64,000 bases of DNA from Candidatus Binataceae bacterium. Its GTDB lineage: Bacteria > Desulfobacterota > Binatia > Binatales > Binataceae. Where the stretch lies: NCBI GenBank assembly GCA_030038355.1, contig JASHPB010000098.1:586-64585 (forward strand), read 5' to 3'. Position 1 is the first letter of the stretch; each line of letters starts with the position of its first letter. Shown here piece after piece: positions 15,198-63,112 of this stretch. Under the pieces are notes generated by a model. It was given only the letters and a program-made list of their open reading frames with translations, was not told the origin of the DNA and searched no databases. Made by a program: the position numbers and the translations under genes.

Positions 15198-15270
15198 AGC
15201 CGCCTTCTCCTCGCCCTCGAACAACTCGCTTTTCGCAGAACGCTAGATGAATGTCGATCGCGGTCGCCGG

Positions 15271-35968: not shown

Positions 35969-36060
35969 CGGATGGCACCTCGCCTAAGCTCAGATTATAC
36001 GCGCCCGAGCGTCTGTTCGCATCGCCGGCATCAACCCCGTTGGCGGTCCATTTTGGAACT

Positions 36061-36095
36061 CCCCTTCCCGATGCGGGAAGGGGTTGCGGGTTAGG
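36061..36095. repeat. Palindromic repeat element copy 1 (CCCCTTCCCGATGCGGGAAGGGGTTGCGGGTTAGG)
   Basis: Self-complementary hairpin CCCCTTCCCG-ATG-CGGGAAGGGG. About 30 nt are shared with an inverted copy at 36498-36537. Confidence 0.5.
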
Positions 36096-36497
36096 TCGAT
36101 TGGCTTGGGCGCGTTCGTTGCCACGCTCGCAATCCAATCGACGATCGAAATGAAATCTCGTTCGATGCTTTGGTTTGGAATCCTGAGCACTCGAACTCAA
36201 CCTTGTTAAGGCGCGGTCTCGTTGAGGATCGTGATCCGCGCGCAGTACGTGTGACGGCGCATCGAGTTCAATCGCAAGGGGCGCGGCTTCGCAATAGAAA
36301 TCAACGATAAGATTCCCAAGCACTTGCGGGCGGTGAAAATGAAGACCCCAATAGAGTTTCGTCGGAGCGCAGTCCAGAGCTTCTGCTCCTGGCAATGTCG
36401 GTCGGCAGCGGAGCGATTTCGGGGCCCAGGGCGATTTCGCACTGACGGTCTGATTATGAACGTTGGGGCGAGAGGGGAGAAGGATCAGGCACCCGAG

Positions 36498-36537
36498 CTA
36501 ACCCCTAACCCCTTCCCGCATCGGGAAGGCGGATTAG
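36498..36537. repeat. Palindromic repeat element copy 2 (inverted orientation)
   Basis: The reverse complement reads CCTAATCCGCCTTCCCGATGCGGGAAGGGGTTAGGGGTTAG. The core CTTCCCGATGCGGGAAGGGGTT-GGGTTAG is shared with copy 1. Confidence 0.5.
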
Positions 36538-36875
36538 GATCGCGCACGGTTCTGCTTTCAGCTGCCGTTTTTCACCGCGTAAGCGCTGGACGAGTTTATT
36601 TCGAACTTCGAACGCATCGGCGATATGCAGTCTTCGTTGGCTCGTGCCAAAAAAAGGCTTCCATCGGGCAAAGAAGCCGGATTGGCCGCCAATAGCATTT
36701 GTGTTCGCAGCTCTTCCAGGCGCGAATCACGCAGCGCAAGCTGACTCTCGAGACAGTAGATTTCCGAGCCGTCTCTGGAATTGGCAGCGACCGCATAACA
36801 GAGTTGTTCGACTGCCAACCGTTCGGACCGAATCAGCAGGTTCAAGCTTTCCAATCTCGGCTCCGCGTCGCGGCC

Positions 36876-38810
36876 TTAATCCTTCCATAGATTGTTGGCG
36901 GCGTATTTCAGCACCACGTCCACGCACGATTCGCAGTAGCCGTTCTCGAGCAGGTTCTTCACCATTGCGCTGTACTTCTCGCCCTGCTCCTCGTCGCGCG
37001 TGCGCGCCTTGGTGATGATGCGCGAGATGTCGCGCACCGAGGTCATCAACTTCTTCTCGATCGCTTCCTTGAGCGGCTCGTAACTCCGATAGCTGACCTT
37101 GTCTCCACGCCGCGACGTCGCCCACAGGTATGCGATCACTTCCTGGCGGAAGCCGTCGGCCGCCGAGCCGATGATCGCGATCTGCTCCTCGATCGACTTG
37201 AGGAAGCCTTCATCGGGCGGCAGCTCTTCCTTGGTGTTGCGATCGCGAACCTTGGTCTTGTTCACATACGCTTCGGCGTGATCGAGATAATTCTGGAACA
37301 GCGACTCGGCCTGCTCCTGGTAGGAGTAAACGAACGCGCGCGTGATCTCCTTCTCGAGCATGTCGAGATATTCCTTGTGCAGGGTGTCCTGCAAGAATTC
37401 GAGATATTGCTTGCGCGTATCGTCGGGCAGGTCGGCCTCCTTGGTCATCTGGATCAGCGCCTCACGGACGTTGATCGGGTTGATGCAGTTGCCGGAAACG
37501 TTGTCGGAGAGCGCGTTGTCCAGGGCCTTCATGATGAAGCGGGTCGAAATCCCGTTCATGCCTTCGCGCTTGGTGTCTTCCTTCAGCTCCTGCACATCGA
37601 TCTTCTTGGTGCGGCCTTTCTCGACTACTTCCTCGCCGTTGTAGAGGCGGAGCTTGGTCATCAGATCGCACTTCGAGGTCGGCTCGAGCCGCGACAGGAT
37701 CGCGAACATCGAGGCCATCTCGAGCGTGTGGGGCGCAACGTGCGCGCGAAAATCGGAGTTACGGATGATCTTCTGGTAGATCTTCACTTCCTCCGACAGG
37801 CGCAGGTTGTAGGGCACCTTCACGACCACGATACGGTCAAGGATCGCCTCGTTCGTGTGATCGGCTTTGAACTTCTGCCACTCGGCTTCGTTGGAGTGCG
37901 CGATGATGCAGGTGTCAACGTAGACCATGCCATGACGGCCGGGCGCCGGGATCACCTTCTCCTGCGTCGCGGTGATCATCGCATGCAGGTATTCGGTCTC
38001 GTTCTTGAAAACTTCGATAAACTCAACCACGCCACGATCGCCGACGTTGAGCGCGCCGTTGAGCTCGAGTACGCGCGGGTCGCCTTCGGAATACTGATCG
38101 AGCTTCGAGATGTCTTCGGAGCCGATCAGCACCGAGGTGTCCTGGTTGTTGGGATCGACCGGCGGAACCACGCCGACGCCCACGCGGTTGCGCTTCGAGA
38201 AGTTGCGCGTGATGACGGGGAATTCCTCGTAGCGCTGGTTGAACTCCGTCCTCAGCCGATAGCGGCAGACCGGGCAGAGATCACCCTCGACGTGGACACC
38301 TAGCATCTTCTCGAACTCGCGCCGCAGATGGCGCGGGATGAGATGCAGCGGCTCTTCGTTCATCGGACATCCCTCGATCGCGTAGATCGGCGGCGCCTGC
38401 TCGAGACCGCGCTGGACGCGCTCGACCAGCGAGCTTTTGCCCGAGCCGACCGGACCCATCAGGTAGAGCACCTGGCGGCTCTCCTCGCCCTTCAGCGAGG
38501 CGGAATGGAAGTAGCGAACGATTTGCGCGATCGTGCGTTCGATGCCGAAGAACTCGTCCGCGAAGAAGTTGTACACCTTGAGCGGCTCGTCCTTGTACAA
38601 CCGCTTCGTGCGCGGGTCGTCCGTGTCGTGGATGTTTCGCAGACCGGGCGCCATGATCAGGTCGTAGATGCGGGCGTGCGCGAGTTTGGTCGTCGTGGGA
38701 TCGTTGCGCACGACTTCCAGGTACTCGAGCAGTGTGCCACGCCACTGTTTCGATTCACGCGCCGCGCGGTCTTCCTTAATCACACGCTCATACGTGCTGA
38801 GGTCGGCCAT
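36876..38810 (-). CDS. prkA: PrkA family serine protein kinase (AAA+/kinase-like)
   Basis: 644 aa. Walker A GPVGSGKSS and the long conserved PrkA/YeaG N- and C-terminal blocks. It is the first gene of the prkA-yeaH-spoVR triad. Confidence 0.95.
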   Translation of the reverse strand: MADLSTYERVIKEDRAARESKQWRGTLLEYLEVVRNDPTTTKLAHARIYDLIMAPGLRNIHDTDDPRTKRLYKDEPLKVYNFFADEFFGIERTIAQIVRYFHSASLKGEESRQVLYLMGPVGSGKSSLVERVQRGLEQAPPIYAIEGCPMNEEPLHLIPRHLRREFEKMLGVHVEGDLCPVCRYRLRTEFNQRYEEFPVITRNFSKRNRVGVGVVPPVDPNNQDTSVLIGSEDISKLDQYSEGDPRVLELNGALNVGDRGVVEFIEVFKNETEYLHAMITATQEKVIPAPGRHGMVYVDTCIIAHSNEAEWQKFKADHTNEAILDRIVVVKVPYNLRLSEEVKIYQKIIRNSDFRAHVAPHTLEMASMFAILSRLEPTSKCDLMTKLRLYNGEEVVEKGRTKKIDVQELKEDTKREGMNGISTRFIMKALDNALSDNVSGNCINPINVREALIQMTKEADLPDDTRKQYLEFLQDTLHKEYLDMLEKEITRAFVYSYQEQAESLFQNYLDHAEAYVNKTKVRDRNTKEELPPDEGFLKSIEEQIAIIGSAADGFRQEVIAYLWATSRRGDKVSYRSYEPLKEAIEKKLMTSVRDISRIITKARTRDEEQGEKYSAMVKNLLENGYCESCVDVVLKYAANNLWKD

Positions 38811-43827: not shown

Positions 43828-46084
<2,257 letters not shown>

Positions 46085-50906: not shown

Positions 50907-51807
50907 CTAGTAGCGAGAACCAAGGATCGAACAAAGCGCGGGGCACCACCCTATGGTAACTTTGCTCCTCGTCTTTACCGATGGAAAATCTTCAACGTTC
51001 AGCCGCGGTAAAAAATGGCAAAGCGTCTGCGAGTGACTTGAAGACTCCCTGCTTTGTCGAGTAAGAGCACAGGCTCCATTTTCCTCAATAACCCTAAGAG
51101 CAGGTCGTTGCAGTCTACGGTTCGATCGCTGGATTGGGGGGCTTGGGATTGCAAGCCGCCACGGCCATACATGGTATCGCCATGACGGGTTGCGAAGTAC
51201 ATGCATTCGGTCAGCGGAGACAAAGGCCATAACTTTCGTAGCCGGGATACTCGGCACCCCGATAGATGCGCACCATCTAAGGGTCTCCAGTCCCACTCGA
51301 GTAAACACGTAGCAAAGGTTCCGCATCGGAGAAGTCGGTACACCTATTTGCGCTGGTACACGGGAGCGCTTCGGCTCAAGAACGACCTCAAAAGAGCTCG
51401 ACGGGCGGTCCGTCAACTTGATGATCGCGGGGTGGTTAGAGATCTATCCCGTGTGACCCTACTGCTATCTGTTGATCCCCGACGCCATTAGCGCTCAACG
51501 ATCCGGCTCACGTTCGAGAAGGTTATAGGCTCGCAGAACCCTCTCAGCTCCTCGACGACTTTGGCCTGGAGCTCATTTTGTCGGATTACTGTATGTTCGT
51601 GGGCTTTCGTCTCATCATGAAACCTTGGCCTAAACTGAAATGGCTTCCGCATCTTCTGATCCTGGGCTTGGGCCATTTCGAGCGCTCATTTGAGATCGGT
51701 CCTCCGCTGGATGGGGTTGTAGTGGTGTGCAAGCGTCGAGGAGTGCTTGCTCAAGTACTTGGGCGAGCTGCCGCGTGGCAGGCGACGAGTTATCCAGCGC
51801 AGCTTGG

Positions 51808-52215
51808 TCAGCCCGGCTGCTTGTCGAACCTCGGAAGATCGTCGCGGACGGGCGCCCACGGCGGTGCGCTCTTCATGAAGACCTGCATCATTGGCTTGAA
51901 TAGCGATGGATCGTCGAGGCTGCCGGCCTTGAGCGCGACGAAATCGCCCATCGCCGGCAGCACGGAGACGATCGGCGAGCCGCAGTTCGGGCAGAAGCCG
52001 CGGCTCACCTTGTTGCCGCTGTCTCCCGTCACTTCATAGTGCTTGAGCTGCCCCGTGATCTTGAGCGCGGCATTCGGCACCAGCATCACCGACGCCATCG
52101 CGGTTCCGGTCGAATGCTGGCAATCGGTGCAGTAGCAATTTCCCATGAAGATAGGATCGGCTGAGCATTCGTAGCGCACCGCTCCGCAAGCGCATCCGCC
52201 GGTGATTTTAGCCAT
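51808..52215 (-). CDS. GFA family protein (glutathione-dependent formaldehyde-activating enzyme / CENP-V-like Zn-Cys domain)
   Basis: ATG 52215 with RBS AGGAGGA at 7 nt. Cys pattern CACGAVRYEC...CYCTDC...CPNCG is typical of the GFA domain. Confidence 0.8.
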   Translation of the reverse strand: MAKITGGCACGAVRYECSADPIFMGNCYCTDCQHSTGTAMASVMLVPNAALKITGQLKHYEVTGDSGNKVSRGFCPNCGSPIVSVLPAMGDFVALKAGSLDDPSLFKPMMQVFMKSAPPWAPVRDDLPRFDKQPG

Positions 52216-52366
52216 GGCACTTCCTCCTGATGTCGCAGAGTCGCCTATCGCGCGCGCATGAATCAAGCGCGACTCGATCGTAGCTTTCCATCGTCCAAAA
52301 AGACGATGCCACTAACCCGCCGGATTGTGGCAGCATCGTTATGGACCATCAGGTGGAGGGTCGCTT

Positions 52367-53437
52367 ATGCCGCTGACACACATGATCGATGCAGCGCCGA
52401 TTGCGGATCGCTACGCGCGCGGATGGCATTGCCTGGGACTCGCGGCTGACTATCACGACGGCGAGCCGCATCGAATCGACGCCTTTGGCACGCGCCTCGT
52501 CGTGTTCGCGGGGGAGGATGGCGCTTTCCACGTCCTCGACGCGTTCTGCCCGCACATGGGCGCCGATTTGAGCTGCGGCCAGGTGCGCGGCGATACCATT
52601 TGCTGTCCCTTCCATAACTGGAGCTACGGACCGGACGGCAAGTGCGTCAACATCCCCTACAGCAAGCGCATCCCGCCCAAGGCGCGCGTGCGTTCGTGGC
52701 CGATCAGCGAGCAGAACAAGTTGCTATTCGTGTGGAACGATCCCGAGGGCAACGCGCCGACGCCGGACCTGGATATTCCGCGCATCGACGCGTGTTACTC
52801 AAATGAATGGACCGACTGGGTAATCGAAAAGTGGACGATCAACACCAACTGCCGCGAGTTGATCGACAACGTTGCCGACATGGCGCACTTTCCCGTCGTG
52901 CATAACGCGCCGGTCGATTACTTTGCCAACGTCTTCCAGCGTCACAAGGCGACGCAGATAATGATCGGCAGCGGCGGCGTGGGGACTCAGGGAAGCCTCA
53001 AGACCTGCGCAACTTACTTCGGCCCCGCGTATCAGATCACGCAAATGACGGGCGAAATGGGCGGGTTTCCGGTCGATTCGATCCTGCTGAACTGCCACGT
53101 GCCGGTTCATCTACGATGCTTCGAGCTGCGCTTCGGGATGGTCGTGCGCAAGATGAAGGGCGTGAGCGACGAACTATCGAAGCAGATGACCGAGGCGTAC
53201 ATCAAGGGCATCCAGCAGGGTTTCTACCAGGACGTAGCAATCTGGGATAACAAGATCAGGATCGACAATCCCCTTCTCTGCGAAGGCGATGGGCCGATCT
53301 ACCAGCTTCGCGAATGGTACCGGCAGTTCTACGTCGATGCGGACGACGTGCCCGAGGACACGCGCAAGCGGCAGGTGGTCGAGATTAACCTGGGGCTCAA
53401 GGATCCGCCCGCGCCGCATCACGTATTCGAGGATTAG
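52367..53437 (+). CDS. kshA: Rieske [2Fe-2S] non-heme iron oxygenase, 3-ketosteroid 9alpha-hydroxylase KshA-like
   Basis: ATG 52367 with RBS GGTGGAGGG. Rieske CPHMGADLSCG-x-CCPFHNW (CxH-x16-CxxH). Mononuclear Fe motif NVADMAHFPVVH (D-x2-H-x4-H). The N-terminal string RGWHCLGLAADYHDGEPHRIDAFGTRLVVFAGEDGAFHVLDAFCPHMG closely parallels KshA (RGWHCLGLAKDF..GKPH.V..FGT.LVVFAD..G...VLDAYCRHMG) as recalled. Confidence 0.85.
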   Translation: MPLTHMIDAAPIADRYARGWHCLGLAADYHDGEPHRIDAFGTRLVVFAGEDGAFHVLDAFCPHMGADLSCGQVRGDTICCPFHNWSYGPDGKCVNIPYSKRIPPKARVRSWPISEQNKLLFVWNDPEGNAPTPDLDIPRIDACYSNEWTDWVIEKWTINTNCRELIDNVADMAHFPVVHNAPVDYFANVFQRHKATQIMIGSGGVGTQGSLKTCATYFGPAYQITQMTGEMGGFPVDSILLNCHVPVHLRCFELRFGMVVRKMKGVSDELSKQMTEAYIKGIQQGFYQDVAIWDNKIRIDNPLLCEGDGPIYQLREWYRQFYVDADDVPEDTRKRQVVEINLGLKDPPAPHHVFED

Positions 53438-53500
53438 CGGCCGCGCCGCGCCTCGTCGGCACTATCCGCACGTATCGCAGTCCGGCGCGCCTTGGACTAG

Positions 53501-54688
53501 ATGAATGATGTGGCCGGGCAGGTCCATCGCGCGCGCAAGGTTAACTTATCGAACGGCGGCTTTCCGCTGTCGCTCAATGACTTCAGCGAACTGGTCGCCA
53601 TGATCTACCAGGGCCCGCTCGAGCCCGTGCCCTGGAAGAGCGCGCTCGAGATCCTGCGGCAGCATCTCCGCGCCAACTACGTCACGCTGATGCTCCGCCC
53701 TCCCAGCGCCGAGCGCGAACCGCTCATGGTGAACGCGGCGGGTGATTCACCAATCACACGCCAGGACGAATACAACAAGTACTACTACGCGCTCGATCCT
53801 TTCGTTGATCTGCCCGAGGATCGCGTCGTCACCGTCGAGGAGTTGATCGGCGACGATAACTGGCGCGACAGCGATTTCTACAAGCAGTTTCTCAAGCCGC
53901 TCGACATTCTTCATGCGCTCGGCGCCGATATCCGCACCGAAGAAGGCGTGGAATGCCGCTTCCGCGTCGCCAGGTCGCATCGCGAATCGCCGTTTTCAGA
54001 ACGCGATCGCATGCTCTGCGAGATGGTCCTGCCGCATCTCAAACGCGCCGTGCATCTGCATTCGCAGCTCGAGCAAATCGACTCCGAGCGCCGCCTCTAT
54101 GCCGGCACCGTTGATCGCATGCTGGTCGGCACCCTCATCCTCGATCAGTCCGGCGCCGTGATTCGCCGCAACCGGGTGGCCGACGAGATGTTGCGTGAGG
54201 GCGACGGGCTTGGAATCGTAAATGGCGCGCTTCGCGCCGATCATCCCGCTGAGAATCGCGAGCTGCAGCGCCTTATCAAGCAGGCGATGAGCTGCGCGCC
54301 TGGCGGACGCCCCGCCGTGGTCGAGGCGATCTCGATCAGCAGGAAGTCGGAGCGCGCGAAACTCGGAATTCTGATTCGCAGCATTCCGGCGACTGGATGG
54401 TCTGAGGGCAAGCGGCGCCCTGCCGTCGCGCTCTTCATCCGCGATGCGGTCCGCAAGTCGGAGGCGTCGCGCGAGATGATACGGAGCCTTTTCGACCTGA
54501 CTCCTGCCGAGGCAAGTCTTGCGCTCTCGCTCGCGAACGGGCTCACCCTCGATGAAGCGGCTGAGGAACTCAAGATCCGCAAGAATACGGCGCGAGCGCA
54601 TCTGCGCGCGATCTTTTCGAAAATTGGCGTGACCCGACAGACGACTCTCGTGCGCGTGCTGCTGAGCAGCGTGGTGTGGCTCGGATGA
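53501..54688 (+). CDS. LuxR-family transcriptional regulator (C-terminal GerE/LuxR HTH; N-terminal ~320-aa domain of unknown fold)
   Basis: 395 aa. The C-terminal LTPAEASLALSLANGLTLDEAAEELKIRKNTARAHLRAIFSKIGV is a LuxR-type HTH. The N-terminal region has no motif I recognise. The gene sits between kshA-like and hsaA-like genes. Confidence 0.85.
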   Translation: MNDVAGQVHRARKVNLSNGGFPLSLNDFSELVAMIYQGPLEPVPWKSALEILRQHLRANYVTLMLRPPSAEREPLMVNAAGDSPITRQDEYNKYYYALDPFVDLPEDRVVTVEELIGDDNWRDSDFYKQFLKPLDILHALGADIRTEEGVECRFRVARSHRESPFSERDRMLCEMVLPHLKRAVHLHSQLEQIDSERRLYAGTVDRMLVGTLILDQSGAVIRRNRVADEMLREGDGLGIVNGALRADHPAENRELQRLIKQAMSCAPGGRPAVVEAISISRKSERAKLGILIRSIPATGWSEGKRRPAVALFIRDAVRKSEASREMIRSLFDLTPAEASLALSLANGLTLDEAAEELKIRKNTARAHLRAIFSKIGVTRQTTLVRVLLSSVVWLG

Positions 54689-54812
54689 GCGTCGAGTCCA
54701 TAGTCCTTTCGGACGATTCATGCGGGCGAGTCCCGATGTCACCATCGCGGGCGACCGCATCACGCAAGGTAACGGAGCGAGCGTGGCACTATCGGAAGAT
54801 TCGATCAGGCCA

Positions 54813-56006
54813 ATGAAAGCCAACGGCGAAGCTGGCGAATTGGATCTCGCCGCGTCACTTCGCGAGCGCGCGCGCACGATGGTGCCCACGATCGCCAGCC
54901 GCGCGGCGCTCTGCGAACAGCAGCGGTTCGTCCCCAGGGAAACGATCGCGGAGTTCAAACAGGCCGGCCTCTTCCGCATCATACAGCCGCGACGTTACGG
55001 CGGATACGAGCTGCATCCAAATGTCTTCTTCGACGTGCAGATGACGCTCGCCGAAGGATGCATGTCGACTGGATGGGTTTACGGCGTTGTCGGGGTGCAC
55101 AACTGGCAGCTCGGCCTCTTCGATCAGCGCGCGCAGGAAGACGTCTGGGGCAAGGACGACTCGGTGCTGATCTCGTCAAGCTACATGCCGAAAGGACAGG
55201 TCGAGCGCGTCGACGGCGGATTCAAGTTCAGCGGCCGCTGGGGGTTTTCGAGCGGCGTCGATCACGCCGACTGGCTGTTTCTCGGCGGAATCATCCCGTC
55301 GAAGTCGGGCGTGCCCGACTACCGAACATTCCTCGTGCCCCGCGCCGACATCAGCATCAACGACAACTGGCATACCATGGGGCTCAAAGGAACGGGCAGC
55401 AAGGAGGTCGTCATCGAAAACGCGTTCGTGCCCGAGTATCGAACGCATCGTGCGATCGACGGATTCGCCGGCACCAGCCCGGGCCTCAGCATAAATACAA
55501 CTCCTCTATATAGGCTGCCATTCGGCCAGGTTTTCGTGCGCGCCGTTTCGAGCGCGTCGATCGGAGCGCTGCAAGGCGCGCTGAATGTTTTCCGCGAATA
55601 CGGATCCAAGCGCACCAGCATCAACGACATGGCCCGCACCGCCGAGGATCCTACGGCTCAGCGTGCTGTTGCGGAGGCGGCGCTCGCGATCGATGACATG
55701 CGGCTCGAGCTTCATCGGAATTTCGACGCGATGCTGACGACGCTCACGCGCGGCGACGCGCTCGACGTCAACGATCGAATCCACTACCGCTACCAGTCCG
55801 CCGACGTTGCGCAGCGATGCTGCGATCATATCGATCGTCTGTTTCATTCGTGCGGCGGCCAGGGAGTTTACGCCGACAAGCCGATCGGGCGTTTCCTCGT
55901 CGATATTCACGCAGCGCGCCTGCATTACGCGAACAACGCCGAGAAGTTCGGCCGCAACTATGGCGGTGTGCTGCTCGGTCTCGGCAACACGGACTTCTTT
56001 ATATGA
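54813..56006 (+). CDS. Acyl-CoA-dehydrogenase-fold flavin-dependent monooxygenase (HsaA / HpaB-C2 / DszC-like group D)
   Basis: ACAD-like blocks (..FRIIQPRRYGGYEL.., GWVYGVVGVHNWQ, FSGRWGFSSG) and a C-terminal four-helix region. Start ATG 54813, with an alternative GTG at 54783. Its stop overlaps the next gene start (ATGA). Confidence 0.75.
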   Translation: MKANGEAGELDLAASLRERARTMVPTIASRAALCEQQRFVPRETIAEFKQAGLFRIIQPRRYGGYELHPNVFFDVQMTLAEGCMSTGWVYGVVGVHNWQLGLFDQRAQEDVWGKDDSVLISSSYMPKGQVERVDGGFKFSGRWGFSSGVDHADWLFLGGIIPSKSGVPDYRTFLVPRADISINDNWHTMGLKGTGSKEVVIENAFVPEYRTHRAIDGFAGTSPGLSINTTPLYRLPFGQVFVRAVSSASIGALQGALNVFREYGSKRTSINDMARTAEDPTAQRAVAEAALAIDDMRLELHRNFDAMLTTLTRGDALDVNDRIHYRYQSADVAQRCCDHIDRLFHSCGGQGVYADKPIGRFLVDIHAARLHYANNAEKFGRNYGGVLLGLGNTDFFI

Positions 56007-57724
56007 GCGACGCGGCGAGAGCGGGCGCGGCGAGCGCGAACTGGGACGGCGAATTCGATGTGATCGTCGTCGGCTCAGGCGCGGGCGGACTTACCGCCGC
56101 GATCGCCGCGCATGACCTGGGCCAGTCAGTCGTAGTGCTCGAGAAGAGCGACCAGTACGGCGGCACGTCGGCAATCTCCGGCGGCGGCGTGTGGGTGCCG
56201 TGCAATCATCTGCTCATCGAAGCGGGTGTGAGTGATAGCCACGACGAAGCACTGACGTATCTCAAGGCCGCGACACGCGGGATGGTCGCCGAGGCGCGCC
56301 TGCTCGCGTATCTCGAGCACGCGCCCAAGATGCTCCGCTACTTGGAAGAGAAGACGTGGCTTAAATATCGCTCGATGCTGCAGTACTCGGACTACTATCC
56401 GCATCTGCCGGGTTCGAAGCCCGGCGCGCGCACTCTCGATCCGTTGCCATTCGACGCATCGCGGCTCGGCGAGGAGTTCGGGCATATGCGACCGCCGCAG
56501 CCCGGCACGCTAATCGGCGGCCGAATCACGATGACGGCCGGCGAGGCGCATACGATCCTCTGCAAGGATCGTGGCTGGACGACGCTATTCGCAAAACGCA
56601 TGTTGTCCTACTGGCTCGATCTGCCGTGGCGGCTGCGCACCAAGCGTGACCGGCGGTTAACGCTAGGTAGTTCGCTGATCGGATCGCTACGGCGCTCGAT
56701 GATGGATCGCGCAATCGCGCTCTGGCTCAATGCGCCGTTCGAATCCCTGATCGTGGATTCGCGCCGCATCACTGGCATTGTGGCGAGGCGTGATGGCAAA
56801 CCCGTCCGTATCGGCGCGCGGCGGGGTGTGATCCTCGCCGCTGGCGGATTCGAGCATAATCAACAGATGCGCGATCAGTATCTCCCAAAGCCAACCCGCG
56901 CCGAATGGACGGTCACGCCCGAGGCCAACACCGGAGACGCCATTCGCGCCGGCCTCGAAGCGGGTGCGCGCGTCGATCTGATGGATCACGCATGGTGGGC
57001 GCCTACAGTGTACATCATGGGTCGCGAAAAACGGCGCGCGCTCTTCGTCGAGCGCGCACTGCCCGGATGCGCGATGGTCAATCGCCTGGGCCAGCGTTTT
57101 GTCGACGAAGCCGCGCCCTACAGCGACATCGTGTACGCGATGTACGCCGACAACGAGAAGAGCCACGCCAATCTGCCAGCGTGGCTGATCTTCGATGCCG
57201 AGTTCCGGCGCAAATATCCGTGCGGTCCGCTGCTACCGGGCATGGTGCGTCCCGACAGATCCCTGCCAGCCTCGTGGCTCGGCGCGGTTTTCTTTCGCGC
57301 CGAAACCCTCGCTGCGCTCGCTTCGCAAATCCAGGTTGACGCTGCGGGCCTCAAGCAAACAATCGAGCGGATGAATCAGTTCGCGCGAAGCGGTGATGAC
57401 CAGGAGTTCGGCAAGGGCAGCAATCCGTTCGATCGCTACTATGGCGATGTCAACATCAGGCCGAATCCATGCCTCGGGCCGATCGCGACGCCTCCTTTCT
57501 ATGCGATACGAATCGATGCCGGTGATATCGGGACCAAGGGTGGGCTCCTCACGGATGAATACGCGCGGGTGGTCCGCGAGGACGGCCAGCCGATCCCCGG
57601 CCTCTACGCGATCGGCAACACTTCCGCTGCCGTAATGGGTCCGAGCTATCCTGGTGCGGGCTCGACGCTCGGACCCGCGATGACTTTTGGTTACATCGCG
57701 GCGCATCATCTCGCAGGAGTTTAG
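56003..57724 (+). CDS. FAD-dependent 3-ketosteroid-delta1-dehydrogenase (KstD)-family flavoprotein
   Basis: 573 aa from ATG 56003. GxGxxG FDVIVVGSGAGGLTAA, the FAD_binding_2 pattern (GGTSAISGGGVWVP), and a C-terminal GLYAIGN..GPSYPGAGSTLGPAMTFGYIAAHH typical of KstD/fumarate-reductase-like enzymes. Confidence 0.85.
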   Translation: MSDAARAGAASANWDGEFDVIVVGSGAGGLTAAIAAHDLGQSVVVLEKSDQYGGTSAISGGGVWVPCNHLLIEAGVSDSHDEALTYLKAATRGMVAEARLLAYLEHAPKMLRYLEEKTWLKYRSMLQYSDYYPHLPGSKPGARTLDPLPFDASRLGEEFGHMRPPQPGTLIGGRITMTAGEAHTILCKDRGWTTLFAKRMLSYWLDLPWRLRTKRDRRLTLGSSLIGSLRRSMMDRAIALWLNAPFESLIVDSRRITGIVARRDGKPVRIGARRGVILAAGGFEHNQQMRDQYLPKPTRAEWTVTPEANTGDAIRAGLEAGARVDLMDHAWWAPTVYIMGREKRRALFVERALPGCAMVNRLGQRFVDEAAPYSDIVYAMYADNEKSHANLPAWLIFDAEFRRKYPCGPLLPGMVRPDRSLPASWLGAVFFRAETLAALASQIQVDAAGLKQTIERMNQFARSGDDQEFGKGSNPFDRYYGDVNIRPNPCLGPIATPPFYAIRIDAGDIGTKGGLLTDEYARVVREDGQPIPGLYAIGNTSAAVMGPSYPGAGSTLGPAMTFGYIAAHHLAGV

Positions 57725-57725
57725 G

Positions 57726-58577
57726 ATGCTTATCGATCGGGTATGCCTCGTTACCGGAGCGAGCCTCGGCGTCGGCAAGGGAATCGCTATCGCACTCGGC
57801 GCGGCGGGCGCGACCGTTTACGTGACCGGCCGCAGCAGCAAGAAGAGCGACAATCAGTTCGGCGGCACCGTGTTTGTGACGGCCGAGGACGTCACCAAAC
57901 GTGGGGGACGCGGCGTAGCCGTCGTCTGCGACCATAGTGATGACCAGCAAACACGGGCGCTTTTCGACAAGATCGAAAAGGAATCAGGCCGGCTCGATAT
58001 CCTGGTCAACAACGCGACCGCGATCCCCGATGGCCTCACCGAGGCCGGACCCTTCTGGAAGAAGCCGCTCAGTTTCGTGAAACTGCTCGACGTGGGGCTT
58101 CGTTCCTACTACACGACGACGTGGTACGCCGCGCCGATGCTGACGCGACAGGGCGGCGTGGTCTTCAATTCATCGTCGCCCGGCGCGAAGGGGTACGTTC
58201 ATGGCCCGGCTTATGGCGCCGCCAAGGCGGGTGTTGACAAGATGTCGCACGACATGGCGCACGACTTCAAGCCGTTTGGTGTCACGGTCATCTCGGTTTG
58301 GCTTGGGCTGGTGAAGACCGAGAAGGTCATGACGATCGACCTCAACAAGTCGAAGTACGGGCCGATGCTCGCGATCGCGGAATCGGCAGAGTTCGGCGGC
58401 CGCATTATCGAGGCGATGTACAACGATCCAAACCGGATGGAGCTTAGCGGCCAGACTTTTTTCGCCGCGGAGCTGGCCGAGCGCTACCAGGTGAAGGACG
58501 TCGACGGTAATCAGCCGCCGTCTGGCCGCATGGCCCTCGGTGCGCCTTCCGAGTTTTCTCCGCTCGTCATCGAATGA
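57726..58577 (+). CDS. SDR family oxidoreductase
   Basis: ATG 57726 with AGGAG upstream. TGASLGVGKGIA (TGxxxGxG), NNAT, YxxxK (YGAAKAGV). Confidence 0.85.
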   Translation: MLIDRVCLVTGASLGVGKGIAIALGAAGATVYVTGRSSKKSDNQFGGTVFVTAEDVTKRGGRGVAVVCDHSDDQQTRALFDKIEKESGRLDILVNNATAIPDGLTEAGPFWKKPLSFVKLLDVGLRSYYTTTWYAAPMLTRQGGVVFNSSSPGAKGYVHGPAYGAAKAGVDKMSHDMAHDFKPFGVTVISVWLGLVKTEKVMTIDLNKSKYGPMLAIAESAEFGGRIIEAMYNDPNRMELSGQTFFAAELAERYQVKDVDGNQPPSGRMALGAPSEFSPLVIE

Positions 58578-60294
58578 GAGGACGCGACTTACGGCCAACA
58601 CCGCAGCCGACATAGCGCTCGCATCCAACGCGTCGGGGGCGACGCCGATTGGCGCGCCGCTTCGCGCCGACGGATCGTCGCCAATCGAGTGGAATGACGA
58701 ATGTGACCTCCTCGTCGTGGGCTTCGGCGCCGCGGGAGCAGCGGCGGCGATCGAGGCTGCGCACGCCGGCGCGAGCGTGATCGTCGCCGATCGCTTTGGC
58801 GGCGGCGGTGCGAGCGCGAAGAGCGGCGGCGTCGTGTACGCGGGCGGCGGTACGCGATTCCAAAAAGCGGCGGGGTACGACGATTCGCCCGACGCGATGT
58901 TGGAGTATCTGACTAAGGAGGTCGGCGACGCAGTCGATCGTGCGACGCTTCGGAGTTTCTGCGATCACAGCGTCGAGATGATCGAGTGGCTCGACGCGCA
59001 GGGCATCCAATTCGACTCGAGTGTGCCGCCGCACAAGACCTCTTACCCGGCTGACGGCTTCTACCTTTATTTCTCCGGCAATGAAGCGGTTAAGGAATAC
59101 GCGGGAGCGCATCCACCGGCGCCGCGCGGTCATCGCGTGAAAGGCGCGGGCCTTTCGGGCGCGCTCCTCTTTCATGCGCTCAAGAAAAGCGCGCAAGCCG
59201 CGGGCGCTCGAATCATGACGCAGTCAGCCGTCCGACGACTGGTTATCGACCAAAGCGGCGCGGTGCGGGGCGCAGAGCTTTGGCAGTTTGAGCCCAACAG
59301 CCGCGAGCAGCGGCGTCATCGGCAGCTCAGCCGATGGGCGGAGCGGACGTTCTATGCGGCGCCTGGGCTTTCGGATCGTCTTAGGCGGCGCGCGCTGCAA
59401 GTCGAGCTGACAGGCGCACGGCCGAGGTTCATTCGCGCGCGCGGCGGCGTGGTGCTCAGCACGGGAGGATTCATCTTCAACCGTGAGATGGTCGCGGAGC
59501 ACGCGCCCCAGTACCTGCGCAACTTCCGCCTCGGCACTTCGGGATGCGACGGCAGCGGCGTGCGCCTGGGAGAAACGGTCGGTGCCGCGTCATCACGCCT
59601 CGAACGAATCTCGGCGTGGAGGTTCATCAACCCGCCGCTCGCGTGGGCGCGCGGCATGATTGTCGATACTACGGGACGCCGCTTCTGCAACGAGGAAGTT
59701 TATGGCGCGCGGCTCGGGTTCGAGATGTGCGAGCATCACGGCGGCCGCGCGTGGCTCATCATTGATTCGACCATCAGGCGCGAAGCCTTAATTGAAGCGC
59801 TCTTCGGTGGTCTCTGGGGCTTCCAGAGCGTGCCCGTTCTGGTTCTGACCTTCGCGGGCGCAAAGCGCGCACCCTCGCTGGAACGTCTCGCGGACAGAAT
59901 AGGTGCTGAGCCCTCCGTGCTTAGCGCAAGCTTGAACAACTACAATCGCGCCAGCGCGGATGGTATCGATCCGCTCGGCAAATCGCGCGACCTGCTCGTT
60001 CCCCTCGCCGGGCCGCCCTTCTATGCGCTCGATATCTCAGTCGATAAGCGCGTCTTTCCTTGTCCGGCGATTACCCTCGGCGGCCTGCTCGTTGACGAGG
60101 CGACAGGCGCGGTGAAAAAGAGCGACGGGAGCACAATCGCGGGACTCTATGCCGCCGGCCGCGCCGCGGTTGGAGTCGCCTCGAATCATTACGTGAGCGG
60201 GCTCGCGCTGGCCGACTGCATCTTTTCGGGACGCCGTGCCGGCAGCGCTGCCACGGCGAATCTCCGCGACAGGAAGGCGACAGCGACCGCATAG
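58540..60294 (+). CDS. FAD-binding dehydrogenase, KstD/fumarate-reductase flavoprotein-like (second copy, divergent)
   Basis: GxGxxG LLVVGFGAAGAAAAIEAAHAG, GGGASAKSGGVVYAGGG, and a C-terminal GLYAAGRAAVGVASNHYVSGLALADCIFSGRRAG. The only in-frame start candidate is GTG 58540, which overlaps the upstream SDR by 38 nt. It gives a ~50-aa N-terminal extension. Confidence 0.7.
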   Translation: MRLPSFLRSSSNERTRLTANTAADIALASNASGATPIGAPLRADGSSPIEWNDECDLLVVGFGAAGAAAAIEAAHAGASVIVADRFGGGGASAKSGGVVYAGGGTRFQKAAGYDDSPDAMLEYLTKEVGDAVDRATLRSFCDHSVEMIEWLDAQGIQFDSSVPPHKTSYPADGFYLYFSGNEAVKEYAGAHPPAPRGHRVKGAGLSGALLFHALKKSAQAAGARIMTQSAVRRLVIDQSGAVRGAELWQFEPNSREQRRHRQLSRWAERTFYAAPGLSDRLRRRALQVELTGARPRFIRARGGVVLSTGGFIFNREMVAEHAPQYLRNFRLGTSGCDGSGVRLGETVGAASSRLERISAWRFINPPLAWARGMIVDTTGRRFCNEEVYGARLGFEMCEHHGGRAWLIIDSTIRREALIEALFGGLWGFQSVPVLVLTFAGAKRAPSLERLADRIGAEPSVLSASLNNYNRASADGIDPLGKSRDLLVPLAGPPFYALDISVDKRVFPCPAITLGGLLVDEATGAVKKSDGSTIAGLYAAGRAAVGVASNHYVSGLALADCIFSGRRAGSAATANLRDRKATATA

Positions 60295-60314
60295 GATCGA
60301 TATCGGATAGCCAG

Positions 60315-61049
60315 ATGGAAGGGGTGAAGGGAAAGGTCGTGATCGTCACTGGCGCCGCGAGCGGTATTGGCAGAGAGGACGCGCTCAAGCTCGCGAGCGA
60401 AGGTGCGCGAGTCGTGCTGACGGATTTAAACGAGGACCATGGGCCCGCGGTGGCCCGCGAAATTGGGAAAGACGCACTCTTCGTCCGCCACGACATTTCG
60501 AGCGAGGATGACTGGAAAAGGGCCATCGCCACGACACAAGATCGGTTCGGCCGCATCGATGGTTTGGTGAACAACGCGGGCATCCTGCTAATGGGCTCGG
60601 TCGAGGACACGACGCTCGAGCAGTGGCGCAAGGTCTTGCGCGTCAACGCCGACGGTTACTTTCTCGGATGCAAGTATGGCGTCGCGGCGATGAAAGCGAA
60701 CGGCGGCTCGATCGTTAACATGTCGTCTGTCGCCGCCGACGGTTTGCCGTTCGCCGCTGCCTACAGCGCGTCGAAGGGCGCGGTTGCAGCGCTAACGCAC
60801 AGTGTCGCGGTGCACTGCCGTAGCTGCGGCTACAGAATCCGCTGCAACTCGATTCATCCTGACGGTGTGATAACGCCGATGACGCTGCCGCTGATGGGGA
60901 ATCCTGATCCGGCGACGATCAATTACGCTGCCGATCCCACGTCGCGCTTCTGCGATCCTGGCGATGTCGCGAACCTCGTGTTGTTTCTGATTTCGGATGA
61001 GTCGCGCTTTATTAACGGCGCGCAGATGCGAATCAGCAACGCCTATTGA
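60315..61049 (+). CDS. SDR family oxidoreductase, 3beta/17beta-hydroxysteroid dehydrogenase-like
   Basis: 244 aa. VTGAASGIG, NNAG, YSASKGAV. The string LVNNAGILLMGSVEDTTLEQWRKVLRVNADGYFLGCKYGVAAMKANGGSIVNMSSV...YSASKGAVAALT...IRCNSIHPDGVITPM...LVLFLISDESRFINGAQM parallels the Comamonas 3beta/17beta-HSD, as recalled from memory. Confidence 0.8.
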   Translation: MEGVKGKVVIVTGAASGIGREDALKLASEGARVVLTDLNEDHGPAVAREIGKDALFVRHDISSEDDWKRAIATTQDRFGRIDGLVNNAGILLMGSVEDTTLEQWRKVLRVNADGYFLGCKYGVAAMKANGGSIVNMSSVAADGLPFAAAYSASKGAVAALTHSVAVHCRSCGYRIRCNSIHPDGVITPMTLPLMGNPDPATINYAADPTSRFCDPGDVANLVLFLISDESRFINGAQMRISNAY

Positions 61050-61052
61050 GTA

Positions 61053-62099
61053 ATGGGAAATCCGGCGAATGATGAGACCTGCTATTTGCTCCGTATCCGC
61101 GAGGTGGTCGAGGAAACGGACGAGGCCAAGTCTCTGGTCTTCGAGGTGCCGCCCGCCGCTGCCGAAATATTTCGCTACCGCCCCGGGCAATTCCTGACAC
61201 TTCGTATTCCGCACGAAGGGCGGCATCTGCTGCGCTGCTATTCGCTCGCAAGCTGCCCGCTGACTGATGAAGCGCCGCGCGTAACAGTCAAGCGGGTTGC
61301 CGATGGGCGCGCTTCGAACTGGATCTGCGATCGGCTAAAGGCGGGAGACACGATCGAGGTGAAGGCTCCCGCCGGTCACTTCACGCCCCGTTCGTTGGAC
61401 GGCGATTTTCTGTTCTTTGCCGGCGGCAGCGGTATCACGCCCATCATGTCGATCATCAAGTCCGCGCTGCACGGTGGGTGTGGGCGATTGCTCCTCATTT
61501 ATGCGAATCGAGACGAGCGCTCAGTTATATTCCGCGACGAGCTGAAGGCGCTCGTTCGCGAGCATCCGTCGCGGTTGCAAATCGTTCACTGGCTCGATTC
61601 CGTGCAGGGAATTCCGCTTGCGGCGAACCTCGAGCACTCGGCGAAACCGTTTTCCACCGCCGACTGCTACATCTGCGGGCCTGAGCTCTTCATGGACGGC
61701 GCTCTGAGAGCGCTCCGCGCGCTAGGATTGCCGCCCTCACGTATTCATGTCGAACGATTCGTCTCGCTGCCCGACCAAGAAGACGCAGCAGCAGAGGAAG
61801 CTCCGGCGCCCGCGGCGGATGCTGAGATCCAGCTCGAAGTTGAACTGGACGGAGTTCATCACAAGCTGATATGCAGGCGGAGCGAGCCTCTGCTCAATGC
61901 GATGCTGCGCGCGGGCCTCAAGGCACCGCATTCATGCCGCGCCGGGGCCTGCGCCACCTGCATGTGCACCCTGGAAGCGGGCGAGGTTCATCTGCGCAAC
62001 AACCAGGTGCTCGACAAGAACGATCTCGCGCAGGGCTGGATTCTCGCTTGCCAGGCGATTGCCGACACTCCGTCGGTGAAGGTCAGATTTCCGGATTAA
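61053..62099 (+). CDS. kshB: FNR-type oxidoreductase with C-terminal plant-type [2Fe-2S] ferredoxin domain (KshB / class IA oxygenase reductase-like)
   Basis: RxYS FAD motif (RCYSLAS), NAD motif GGSGITP, C-terminal CRAGACATCMC...C ferredoxin ligands. 348 aa, typical of KshB/PaaE-type reductases. Confidence 0.85.
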   Translation: MGNPANDETCYLLRIREVVEETDEAKSLVFEVPPAAAEIFRYRPGQFLTLRIPHEGRHLLRCYSLASCPLTDEAPRVTVKRVADGRASNWICDRLKAGDTIEVKAPAGHFTPRSLDGDFLFFAGGSGITPIMSIIKSALHGGCGRLLLIYANRDERSVIFRDELKALVREHPSRLQIVHWLDSVQGIPLAANLEHSAKPFSTADCYICGPELFMDGALRALRALGLPPSRIHVERFVSLPDQEDAAAEEAPAPAADAEIQLEVELDGVHHKLICRRSEPLLNAMLRAGLKAPHSCRAGACATCMCTLEAGEVHLRNNQVLDKNDLAQGWILACQAIADTPSVKVRFPD

Positions 62100-62121
62100 G
62101 CGCTTCCGCGCGGAGCGTTTG

Positions 62122-62952
62122 TCAGCCCTCGCGCAGGAAAGTCAGACACTCGCGATTGAACAGCTCGCGATGCTCGACCATCACCCAGTGCCCGCATCGG
62201 TTGAGCAGCACGAAGCGCGCGTTCGGGCAGTTCTCGAGGATCTTCATCGCGCCGCCGACCGGGTTGAAGCGATCGTTGGTTCCCCAGAAGCCTAGCAGCG
62301 GGCATTTGATTTCGCCGAGCCGCGGCGCCATGTTCGGCACGCGCATCGTTGAAAGCACAGTGCGCGGCTGCATCGCGCATACGCCGACCCGCTCCTCGAG
62401 CAGCTCTTCGGTGATGTGCGAGGCGTCGAAAAGCTGCAGCGTGAGCAGGCGGCGCATCGAGTCGGTGTCCATCGGACCGGCCGCAAACACCTGGATCATC
62501 TTGCTGATGCCTTCCATCTGGAGATAGACCGGCAGGTCCTCGACGCCGCCAGGAGCCATCAGGATTAGGCGAGTCACGAGTTGCGGATAGTCCAGCGTGT
62601 ACTTGAGCGCGATCGCGCCGCCCAAAGAGTTGCCGAGCAGTGTGAATCGCGCGAGGCCGATCTTCTCGACGAGCCCGTGCACGCCGGCGACGAAGAAGTC
62701 GAGCGTGTACTGCGCGTCTTCCGGTTTCGATGAAAGCCCGAATCCCGGCAGGTCGGGCACGATCGCGCGAAAGCCGGCGTCCGCAAACACGGGGAAGTTG
62801 CCCTTGAAGTTGCTGTAGCCGCTCGCGCCCGGACCGCTGCCGTGCAGAAAAATCACCGGCGCGCCCTTGCCGGCCTCGTGGTAATGAATAGTCAATCCAC
62901 TCGCGATTTGTGCGTACTTTCCCTGCGGAATCGGGATCTTAGTGCCGCTCAT
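62122..62952 (-). CDS. Alpha/beta-hydrolase, meta-cleavage-product (C-C bond) hydrolase HsaD/BphD-like
   Basis: 276 aa. HGSGPGASG oxyanion region, nucleophile GNSLGG, and a C-terminal His in CGHWVMVEH. Length and motifs are those of the MCP hydrolases. Confidence 0.85.
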   Translation of the reverse strand: MSGTKIPIPQGKYAQIASGLTIHYHEAGKGAPVIFLHGSGPGASGYSNFKGNFPVFADAGFRAIVPDLPGFGLSSKPEDAQYTLDFFVAGVHGLVEKIGLARFTLLGNSLGGAIALKYTLDYPQLVTRLILMAPGGVEDLPVYLQMEGISKMIQVFAAGPMDTDSMRRLLTLQLFDASHITEELLEERVGVCAMQPRTVLSTMRVPNMAPRLGEIKCPLLGFWGTNDRFNPVGGAMKILENCPNARFVLLNRCGHWVMVEHRELFNRECLTFLREG

Positions 62953-63112
62953 AATTCCTCCACGGCGAGCGAGCAGATCCTCGTGGTGGAGGCGCGCCGA
63001 TGCATCGTCCGATCAGACTATCGCACAGATATCGTTTGTCTGACGCGGCAGCCGACGACCATGGAATTGGCAACAGAGTTGCGCAAAGGTCATGAACAAG
63101 GAGAAGAACGCG

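Follow-up and report, generated by a model that had tools for sequence, protein, structure and literature searches.

What does a LuxR-type regulator with an unassigned sensor region control within a block of steroid-degradation-like genes of the Binatia, and to which signal does it respond? The question is raised by a gene (53501..54688, plus strand, ATG start) for a protein of 395 amino acids (aa) in a 64,000-nucleotide stretch of contig JASHPB010000098.1 from a Candidatus Binataceae bacterium; the whole stretch that was analysed is called the window in the following. The first-pass annotation of this DNA had described a C-terminal GerE/LuxR helix-turn-helix (HTH) domain, about 320 N-terminal residues in which no motif could be placed and a location between a kshA-like and an hsaA-like gene. 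These points stand, as the open reading frame (ORF) and Pfam GerE agree, no curated family is matched in the N-terminal part, and the gene is flanked by a Rieske plus KshA_C gene (52367-53437) and an HsaA-like gene (54813-56006). The interpretation that we favour, with a probability of roughly 60%, is that the protein is a steroid- or catabolite-responsive activator of this cluster, acting via a conserved palindrome as the counterpart of TeiR/TesR in function. From the observations given below we infer binding to the palindrome, activation rather than repression, a steroid-type ligand and co-transcription of the kshA-like gene with the regulator gene.

A GAF-like and PAS tandem precedes the DNA-binding domain

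The G+C content at third codon positions (GC3) of the regulator ORF is 0.77, which is usual for coding ORFs in the window (G+C content 58-64%). An identical protein (P0001) is present in the database, and the homologues that align end to end number more than 1,000; the closest of them are annotated as Candidatus Binatus or Binataceae. The identical protein and the full-length conservation of the homologues identify the ORF as a genuine gene. Pfam returned GerE alone (residues 333-386, 27.6 bits, cut-off 23.5) and nothing above threshold for residues 1-330, and a sequence search of the PDB matched only the HTH. The LuxR/GerE-type DNA-binding domain was delimited to residues ~321-390 (54461..54670, plus strand) by Pfam GerE, the alignments and the PDB HTH matches. 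GerE was matched in all 29 members of a wider alignment (A3), and the family profile matched solved NarL-, VraR- and GerE-type HTH domains with E about 1e-6. The recognition-helix segment KNTARAHLR is invariant in 38 close homologues (alignment A1, 57-82% identity), and in the wider A3 set N362 and T363 are invariant and L368 and R369 nearly so. The N-terminal tail (residues 1-24) is variable and basic and was modelled with low confidence; the conserved body of the protein begins at about residue 24, and residues 1-330 are as conserved as the HTH in alignment A1.

Structure prediction gave an assignment for the N-terminal part. A first AlphaFold model based on the 38 close sequences reached a pLDDT of 71 and was replaced by a model (AF2) built from 129 diverse family members, with a pLDDT of 92.3 and a pTM of 0.83. 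In this model an alpha/beta module is followed by a helix of 40 residues, another alpha/beta module, whose sheet is of the PAS type, and the four-helix HTH. Foldseek comparisons with the PDB gave the same picture for both models and retrieved sensor tandems (bacteriophytochrome GAF-PHY, PDE6 GAF-A/GAF-B and DhaR-N GAF-PAS, the latter with a TM-score of 0.42) as well as receptors in which a sensor is joined to a LuxR HTH (RhlR, SdiA, QscR, TraR, VqmA and EL222). A GAF-helix-PAS/PHY layout recurs among these fold matches.

The first module (residues ~25-160; 53573..53980, plus strand) was assigned from the AF2 model, Foldseek and weak profile matches. Its fold also resembles the ligand domains of acyl-homoserine lactone receptors, and family profile positions 107-177 weakly match the C-terminal part of GAF domains (3o5y, 3trc and 3eea; E=0.06-0.2). 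GAF-like is the safer label for this module because it has fold support but weak sequence signals. The connector helix (40 residues, ~167-206; 53999..54118, plus strand), delimited by DSSP on the models, probably serves in signalling and, presumably, in dimerisation. For the PAS module (residues ~207-319; 54119..54457, plus strand), family profile positions 160-218 align with the beginning of PAS domains of solved structure (7yrt, E=1e-5; 9p6i, 1e-4), with further matches to WalK, DosP, DcuS and EcDOS. Pfam searches of the 29 family members returned a few weak PAS, PAS_4, PAS_8 and PAS_9 matches and one GAF match, and the fold of the module resembles VqmA and EL222. As predicted by the AF2 model, Foldseek and the profiles, the N-terminus is a divergent GAF-like and PAS tandem and not a new fold, so that the earlier suggestion of a new ligand-binding fold is not borne out. 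GAF and PAS domains are among the commonest small-molecule sensor modules.

Two domains had been named at the outset as speaking against a sterol sensor, a response-regulator receiver and an autoinducer-binding domain, and neither was detected by sequence (Pfam). The regulator and the 29 family members gave no Response_reg match, and NCBIfam response-regulator models align to the regulator HTH only. Autoind_bind was not matched in any of these proteins even at E=0.1, and CviR was matched by the family profile marginally (E=0.83).

A search through all 1.84 billion cluster representatives retrieved 26,467 relatives, 12,940 of them at E<1e-10 and 1,107 at E<1e-30. The 150 best-scoring relatives are, with few exceptions, full-length proteins with a size of 370-415 aa. 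Judged by these matches, the regulator is a member of a very large family of fixed architecture that is unnamed in curated libraries. Its own clade (54-82% identity) includes Binatia, Paraburkholderia, Burkholderia, Cupriavidus, Ralstonia and Pseudomonas; look-ups of 30 clusters returned Cupriavidus, Denitratisoma, Marinobacter, Pseudomonas, Rudaea, Litorivivens, Halomonas and Neisseriaceae, and Comamonas was not among them. The sole curated model that aligns beyond the HTH is NF041232 (NCBIfam, BagY/FevT), with regulator residues 121-388 aligned to model positions 103-352 of 367, an alignment that suggests a distant relationship in overall layout. Membership in BagY/FevT, which comprises actinobacterial biosynthetic-cluster regulators, was rejected, as the score of 33.2 bits lies far below the cut-off of 700.

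Linkage to steroid-ring genes is conserved across phyla

To place the regulator in its genomic contexts, one genome per species was scanned and the 80 closest loci were returned, 14 of them from Binatia and the rest at 54-60% identity. Their 10-kb flanks were searched by tblastn with the enzymes of the window and with a Cupriavidus tesB/scd cluster. At least one core homologue (KshA/HsaA/KstD/KshB or TesB/Scd) was found within 10 kb in 63 of the 80 loci, and at least two in 60. The order of the kshA-like gene is kept in all 14 Binatia loci, and 13 of them retain the entire arrangement: a gene of the glutathione-dependent formaldehyde-activating enzyme fold (GFA) on the minus strand, then kshA, the regulator, hsaA, kstD, a short-chain dehydrogenase/reductase (SDR) gene, a FAD protein gene, a second SDR gene and kshB. 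In two Binatia loci the cluster extends into tesB and scdL homologues (L010:11879; L021:19588-20509). Sequence conservation of this kind points to a conserved 9,10-seco-type A/B-ring cluster (KshA, KshB, KstD, HsaA and HsaD-like) in metagenome-assembled genomes of Binatia. The 9,10-seco pathway is described as restricted to Actinobacteria and Proteobacteria (PMC4810484, PMC5790920), and the sole paper found on Binatota and steroids treats sterol biosynthesis (PMC9531527).

Outside the Binatia, the regulator adjoins hsaA-kstD-FAD-SDR-kshB in approximately 35 Burkholderiales loci, with 50-68% identity to the proteins of the window. In nine loci a regulator paralogue lies directly upstream of genes for EthD, TesB, CoA-transferase, enoyl-CoA hydratase (ECH), NMO, ECH, acyl-CoA dehydrogenase (ACAD), ACAD and thiolase, in this order, which is the C. 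testosteroni-type C/D-ring cluster. Two paralogues lie 17 kb apart on one contig of Cupriavidus necator EM36 (L047/L080), and a further pair is formed by L059/L066. Such a pair stands in a single steroid megacluster, one member before hsaA-kstD-kshB and the other before tesB/scd, a situation comparable to that in Pseudomonas Chol1, for which two TeiR-like regulators have been reported. Cupriavidus necator ATCC 17699 (H16) has a family member in the P0121 cluster and carries two paralogues; this strain grows on testosterone (PMC4810484).

More distant members were found in related surroundings. In Denitratisoma oestradiolicum a 47%-identical member precedes genes for ChsH2-like, thiolase, Mo-hydroxylase, NMO, ACAD and old yellow enzyme (OYE) proteins. 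A 52%-identical member stands beside a Baeyer-Villiger monooxygenase (BVMO), an SDR and an esterase, and a 40%-identical one occurs with an esterase, two KstD-like flavoproteins, OYE, SnoaL-like proteins, SDRs and a luciferase-like monooxygenase (LLM). On plasmid pNL2 of Novosphingobium aromaticivorans the family member has an LLM oxidoreductase on one side and a steroid delta-isomerase on the other.

A separate observation concerns the Burkholderiales and γ-proteobacterial relatives, in which the regulator is almost always accompanied by an Abhydrolase_3 esterase, usually in divergent orientation (for example L026:5729-13056, L070:7606-9665, L089:5808-6737 and L004:11245-12180). RibBA, an enzyme of riboflavin synthesis, and an LLM or BVMO often join this pair. 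The set resembles a Baeyer-Villiger/esterase side-chain module by analogy with the progesterone pdc cluster. In one Burkholderia subgroup (L063, L070-L081) only the divergent esterase and RibBA are kept.

A 20-bp palindrome is the candidate operator

In the window a conserved 20-bp palindrome, CATCGTCC-N4-GGACGATG, precedes kshA, hsaA and hsaD. Box 1 is the perfect palindrome CATCGTCCAAAAAGACGATG (52289..52308) in the divergent spacer between the GFA gene and kshA, with its centre 68.5 bp upstream of the kshA ATG. It is present as (C/T/A)ATCGTCC(A/G)AA(A/G)(A/G)GACGATG upstream of kshA in all 14 Binatia loci, and 15 of 15 Binatia kshA promoters carry it; the surrounding spacer has diverged. 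Three copies with two mismatches were found in the window, two of which lie in intergenic DNA of the cluster and are termed boxes 2 and 3. Box 2, CATAGTCCTTTCGGACGATT (54699..54718), lies 11 bp past the regulator stop with its centre 104.5 bp upstream of the hsaA-like ATG at 54813, and recurs as CATAGTC(C/T)(T/C)TTCGGACGATG in six other Binatia loci (L008, L009, L012, L013, L015 and L016). Box 3, CATCGTCCGATCAGACTATC (63003..63022), is located in the intergenic DNA from which the HsaD-like hydrolase gene and a deacetylase-family gene diverge; L019 has the same box in a comparable location, and Pseudomonas L084/L087 have a near-identical one upstream of the regulator.

Related boxes were detected 175-300 bp upstream of the regulator in Paraburkholderia (CATCGTCCGATTGGACGAG), in a Burkholderia subgroup (CATCATCCGATCGGACGATG) and in Pseudomonas, and another Burkholderia group has a related box just upstream of the divergent hsaA. 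The Pseudomonas loci L084/L087 carry two boxes ~50 bp apart upstream of the regulator (9620-9715), CATCGTCCGATGAGACTAGC and CATCGTCCA(T/A)ATGAACGATT, the first of which closely resembles box 3 of the window. With at most one mismatch allowed, 85 boxes were counted in the 1.61 Mb of the 80 loci, compared with 0-6 in shuffled sequence, and at least one was present in 64 of the 80 loci. This count overstates the independent support because the loci are mutually related; more weight attaches to the persistence of boxes in spacers that have otherwise diverged, and across phyla. Two other candidates were discarded. A near-box at 59317 (CATCGGC...GCCGATG) has a different half-site and lies within coding DNA, and GATCGTGGCCTCGGACGATG, which recurs in class-2 loci, is inside a conserved ECH gene and is most simply explained by coding conservation.

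A palindrome at promoters fits the conserved recognition helix KNTARAHLR, and direct DNA binding is indicated by the combination of this helix with a conserved palindrome at the promoters of the cluster. The same combination bears on a different mode of action, in which the regulator would be a steroid receptor located at the membrane and the cell pole and would signal as a kinase, by phosphorylation, instead of contacting DNA directly. TeiR itself has been described in this way by Göhler et al. (2008), with membrane or polar localisation and kinase activity, according to the summaries given in PMC6678751 and PMC8399759. For the protein of the window such a mechanism is highly improbable: the helix and the palindrome point to direct binding, no transmembrane segment was found (maximum 19-residue hydropathy 1.02 on the Kyte-Doolittle scale, although peripheral association may occur), and neither Pfam and NCBIfam nor the fold matches revealed a kinase or ATPase domain.

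The putative promoter geometry favours activation over repression

The position of box 1 relative to the putative kshA promoter was analyzed across the Binatia loci. A candidate extended -10 element, TGGCAGCAT (52328..52336, plus strand), has its hexamer starting 22 nt after box 1. Nine other Binatia loci have TGnCAGCAT at a fixed offset of 17 nt, and L020/L021 have TACAAT in the corresponding position; overall, almost every Binatia locus shows a -10-like hexamer that begins 20-22 nt past the box. No -35 match was detected at the kshA promoters of these loci. With the hexamer placed at the usual -12 to -7, box 1 would be centred at about -42.5 to -44.5 relative to the presumed transcription start. 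Class II lux and tra boxes are centred at -42.5, and activation is favoured because box 1 appears to occupy this position. A sigma-54 reading of TGGCAGCAT was dismissed, as the GG/GC spacing is not conserved in other loci.

The same protein, operator and regulon could also operate in the opposite sense, with a ligand-relieved repressor of the KstR/KstR2 kind blocking RNA polymerase until a steroid binds. Box 1 overlaps the place expected for a -35 element, and in several Binatia loci box 2 is ~9 nt from a TGnAAAnAT element and would thereby fall within a core promoter. Repression is nevertheless considered unlikely. The lack of a -35-like hexamer under or beside box 1 suggests an activator-dependent promoter, centring at -42.5 matches class II activation of the LuxR/TraR type, the Burkholderiales boxes lie well upstream of the genes, and the characterised analogue TeiR/TesR is a positive regulator.

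The proposed mechanism and the nature of the signal

In the activator mechanism that we propose, the regulator would be a cytoplasmic one-component factor that is dimeric through its connector helix. A steroid or early catabolite would bind the GAF-like module, the PAS module or both, and the connector helix would pass on the ligand-induced change, so that the active HTH pair could bind CATCGTCC-N4-GGACGATG palindromes. Three units would be activated in this way: kshA with the regulator gene, the hsaA-kstD-...-kshB operon and hsaD. The regulator would activate its own gene through read-through from kshA.

The identity of the ligand is the part of this scheme on which the genomic contexts can be read differently. 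PAS and GAF domains often bind flavin or haem or sense redox, and the two modules might read redox, O2, a flavin or haem cofactor or a non-steroid substrate (ketone, ester or terpenoid) rather than a steroid. Such a sensor would suit the pairing of the Burkholderiales regulator with an esterase, RibBA and an LLM, the 10-plus Burkholderia loci in which esterase and RibBA are its sole recognisable partners, the member beside BVMO, SDR and esterase, and the occurrence of the wider family beyond steroid clusters. We nevertheless regard a non-steroid signal as quite improbable. No flavin- or haem-PAS signature was detected in the regulator, the pairing of a BVMO or LLM with an esterase is itself a known route of progesterone side-chain degradation (PMC12239570), and three lineages at the level of phylum or class have kept the linkage to ring-opening genes. 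A LOV-type flavin PAS had been considered for the segment ECRFRV (residues 151-156), which resembles the LOV motif NCRFLQ, and was rejected, since ECRFRV belongs to a beta-strand of the first, GAF-like module and the wider family does not conserve its Cys.

Several observations weigh against a steroid-responsive activator. Core steroid genes are missing from 17 of the 80 close loci, and the wider family is also found on many rhizobial and other plasmids that lack evident steroid genes. The architecture alone therefore implies no steroid ligand, and the rhizobial-plasmid members show that steroid linkage is a trait of the regulator's clade and some others and not of the architecture. KshA, HsaA, KstD and HsaD all score below the NCBI equivalog cut-offs, so that the substrate may be a steroid-like polycyclic compound and not a classical steroid. 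At the level of DNA, no clear intergenic box was found at the tesB-adjacent paralogues, which may for this reason recognise a different site. A consensus scan returned no canonical promoter or terminator, and the promoter assignment depends on weak -10-like hexamers. The geometry of box 2 is ambiguous, and a box over the -35 region could repress as well.

To our knowledge, little is understood of how Gram-negative bacteria regulate steroid catabolism; we know of no characterised activator other than TeiR/TesR, and a membrane-kinase mechanism is odd for a LuxR-type protein. Against this background a broader proposal can be made, which we hold as tentative and at somewhat less than even odds. 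Within a large GAF-PAS-LuxR receptor family, one clade that includes TeiR/TesR would be the general (seco-)steroid sensor of Gram-negative 9,10-seco pathways and would act directly on CATCGTCC-N4-GGACGATG and not as a membrane kinase. In the Binatia the sensor would govern a 9,10-seco-type steroid cluster that would be the first one documented outside Actinobacteria and Proteobacteria. The domain map (GAF-like module, helix, PAS module and HTH) and a candidate operator shared from Binatia through Burkholderiales to Pseudomonas make the mechanism directly testable, and Cupriavidus necator H16 is a tractable host with growth on testosterone and two paralogues. The regulator could yield parts for steroid-responsive biosensors, and the cluster provides a hint of steroid-ring catabolism in Binatia, a soil phylum absent from lists of steroid degraders.

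The cluster and its surroundings in the window

The steroid-like island that had been recognised in the window is real but short, extending over about 52.3-63 kb (52325-62952). The GFA-family gene (51808-52266, minus strand) is divergent from the kshA-like gene. GFA stands in this divergent position in 13 of the 14 Binatia loci with 75-87% identity and shares the intergenic region that contains box 1; we know of no role for this family in steroid catabolism. The kshA-like gene (52367..53437, plus strand; Rieske and KshA_C by Pfam) has a strong Shine-Dalgarno sequence, GGTGGAGGG, before its ATG at 52367. A gap of 63 bp separates it from the regulator gene, which is followed after 124 bp by the hsaA-like gene for a flavin-dependent monooxygenase (54813..56006, plus strand; NCBIfam HsaA 403 bits, cut-off 450). 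The kshA-like and regulator genes are probably co-transcribed. Expression of the regulator independently of its neighbours, which the first-pass annotation had allowed for, is argued against by the short gaps, the shared strand and the conserved gene order.

The start of the kstD-like 3-ketosteroid dehydrogenase gene (56003..57724, plus strand) overlaps the hsaA stop (ATGA). The co-directional remainder (57687..62099, plus strand), which starts with an SDR gene, is conserved with the regulator in Binatia and Burkholderiales. It includes genes for a PRK07121-type FAD protein (58540-60294, plus strand), a second SDR (60315-61049, plus strand) and a KshB-like FAD/NAD/2Fe-2S reductase (61053-62099, plus strand). 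On the opposite strand follows the gene for an HsaD/BphD-like meta-cleavage-product hydrolase (62122..62952, minus strand; HsaD 196 bits, cut-off 400).

Outside the island no further steroid genes were found in the window. The other ~50 kb hold unrelated functions, including amidases, a PrkA-DUF444-SpoVR module, family III CoA-transferases, a peptidase and TetR regulators. The PrkA-DUF444-SpoVR module (33225-38810, minus strand) is complete and corresponds to a yeaG-yeaH-ycgB-type stress/starvation operon. The family III CoA-transferase genes are three paralogues (4926-6167, plus strand; 12748-13956 and 13956-15224, minus strand), the latter two adjacent, and lie outside the steroid-like block. 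An ORF of 353 aa (44873-45934, plus strand) that adjoins a family-2 glycosyltransferase gene has a GC3 of 0.37, compared with 0.65-0.84 in its neighbours, and is without a match in Pfam; it may have been gained by horizontal transfer, or it may be a spurious ORF. Between the methyltransferase and GFA genes, ~1.1 kb (50907-52039) contain overlapping ORFs with low or mixed GC3 and no obvious gene, and this region may be non-coding DNA or a decayed gene.

Comparison with known systems

The best fold matches for the 320 N-terminal residues, DhaR-N, the bacteriophytochromes and PDE6 GAF-A/B, share the helix-linked tandem arrangement with the regulator. Sequence identity to these proteins is 10-15%, and their outputs are AAA+, kinase or phosphodiesterase domains instead of a LuxR HTH; no chromophore or cGMP signature was found in the regulator. 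The pairing of a ligand-binding alpha/beta sensor with a GerE HTH is shared with LuxR, TraR, RhlR, SdiA, QscR and VqmA. Foldseek comparisons with quorum-sensing receptors and VqmA gave E values of 1e-5 to 1e-7 and target-normalised TM-scores of up to 0.48, and a 20-bp palindromic (candidate) operator near -42.5 is a further likeness to the quorum-sensing LuxR receptors. In contrast to these receptors with one sensor module, the regulator has two modules and a 40-residue connector; it also differs in the lack of Autoind_bind by sequence, the lack of a signal synthase nearby and the catabolic context.

In Actinobacteria, genes of the kshA, kstD, hsaA and hsaD types are under the TetR-type control of KstR/KstR2 via palindromic operators (PMC6678751). 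Unlike the regulator, KstR and KstR2 have the TetR fold, repress and are released by CoA-thioester catabolites.

The pNL2 protein of Novosphingobium is a full-length member of the family with 28% identity over 90% of the query (E=2e-27). It belongs to the Saro_3594/3595 pair of this plasmid, which PMC12239570 relates to EGO55_13855, the LuxR-type regulator of the pdc cluster in Caenibius tardaugens; according to that paper, progesterone induces the Caenibius gene 3-fold, and its product was put forward as an activator. The Paraburkholderia pairing of regulator and LLM (with or without esterase) is like that on pNL2 and stands next to hsaA-kstD. The pNL2/Caenibius protein differs from the regulator in being distant and in serving a C17 side-chain sub-pathway.

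TeiR/TesR of Comamonas testosteroni is a LuxR-type positive regulator that is needed to induce steroid genes (PMC6678751, PMC6895838, PMC8700777). The steroid cluster of Pseudomonas Chol1 has TeiR-like genes, and deleting one of them delays cholate degradation (PMC8399759). Like TeiR/TesR, the regulator has ~390 aa, a C-terminal LuxR HTH, a PAS-like segment in its central part and a gene inside a steroid cluster. TeiR was reportedly described by Pruneda-Paz in 2004 as a protein of 391 aa with the HTH at residues 327-380 and the PAS domain at 192-227. With an N-terminal offset of 6 residues these segments presumably correspond to regulator residues 333-386 and ~198-235. Unlike TeiR, the regulator has no sequence counterpart for membrane localisation or kinase activity, and its host belongs to the Binatia instead of the Proteobacteria. 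No Comamonas protein was found among the 120 best matches of the regulator, of P0121 (Cupriavidus) or of P0190 (391 aa), nor in the 80 closest loci; TeiR, if related, would thus be at most ~55% identical to P0121 and at most ~37% identical to P0190.

The earlier description of the regulator as a TeiR analogue is supported for its role; any homology to TeiR would be putative and within these limits of identity. A TeiR/TesR-like role is well founded because the linkage between regulator and steroid genes is conserved across phyla, in 63 of 80 loci and in the pNL2, Denitratisoma and γ-proteobacterial contexts. By analogy, the closest known protein in function and layout is best read as TeiR/TesR. 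The kind of regulator is itself known; what is new here is the GAF-PAS architecture, the size of the family and the conserved candidate operator.

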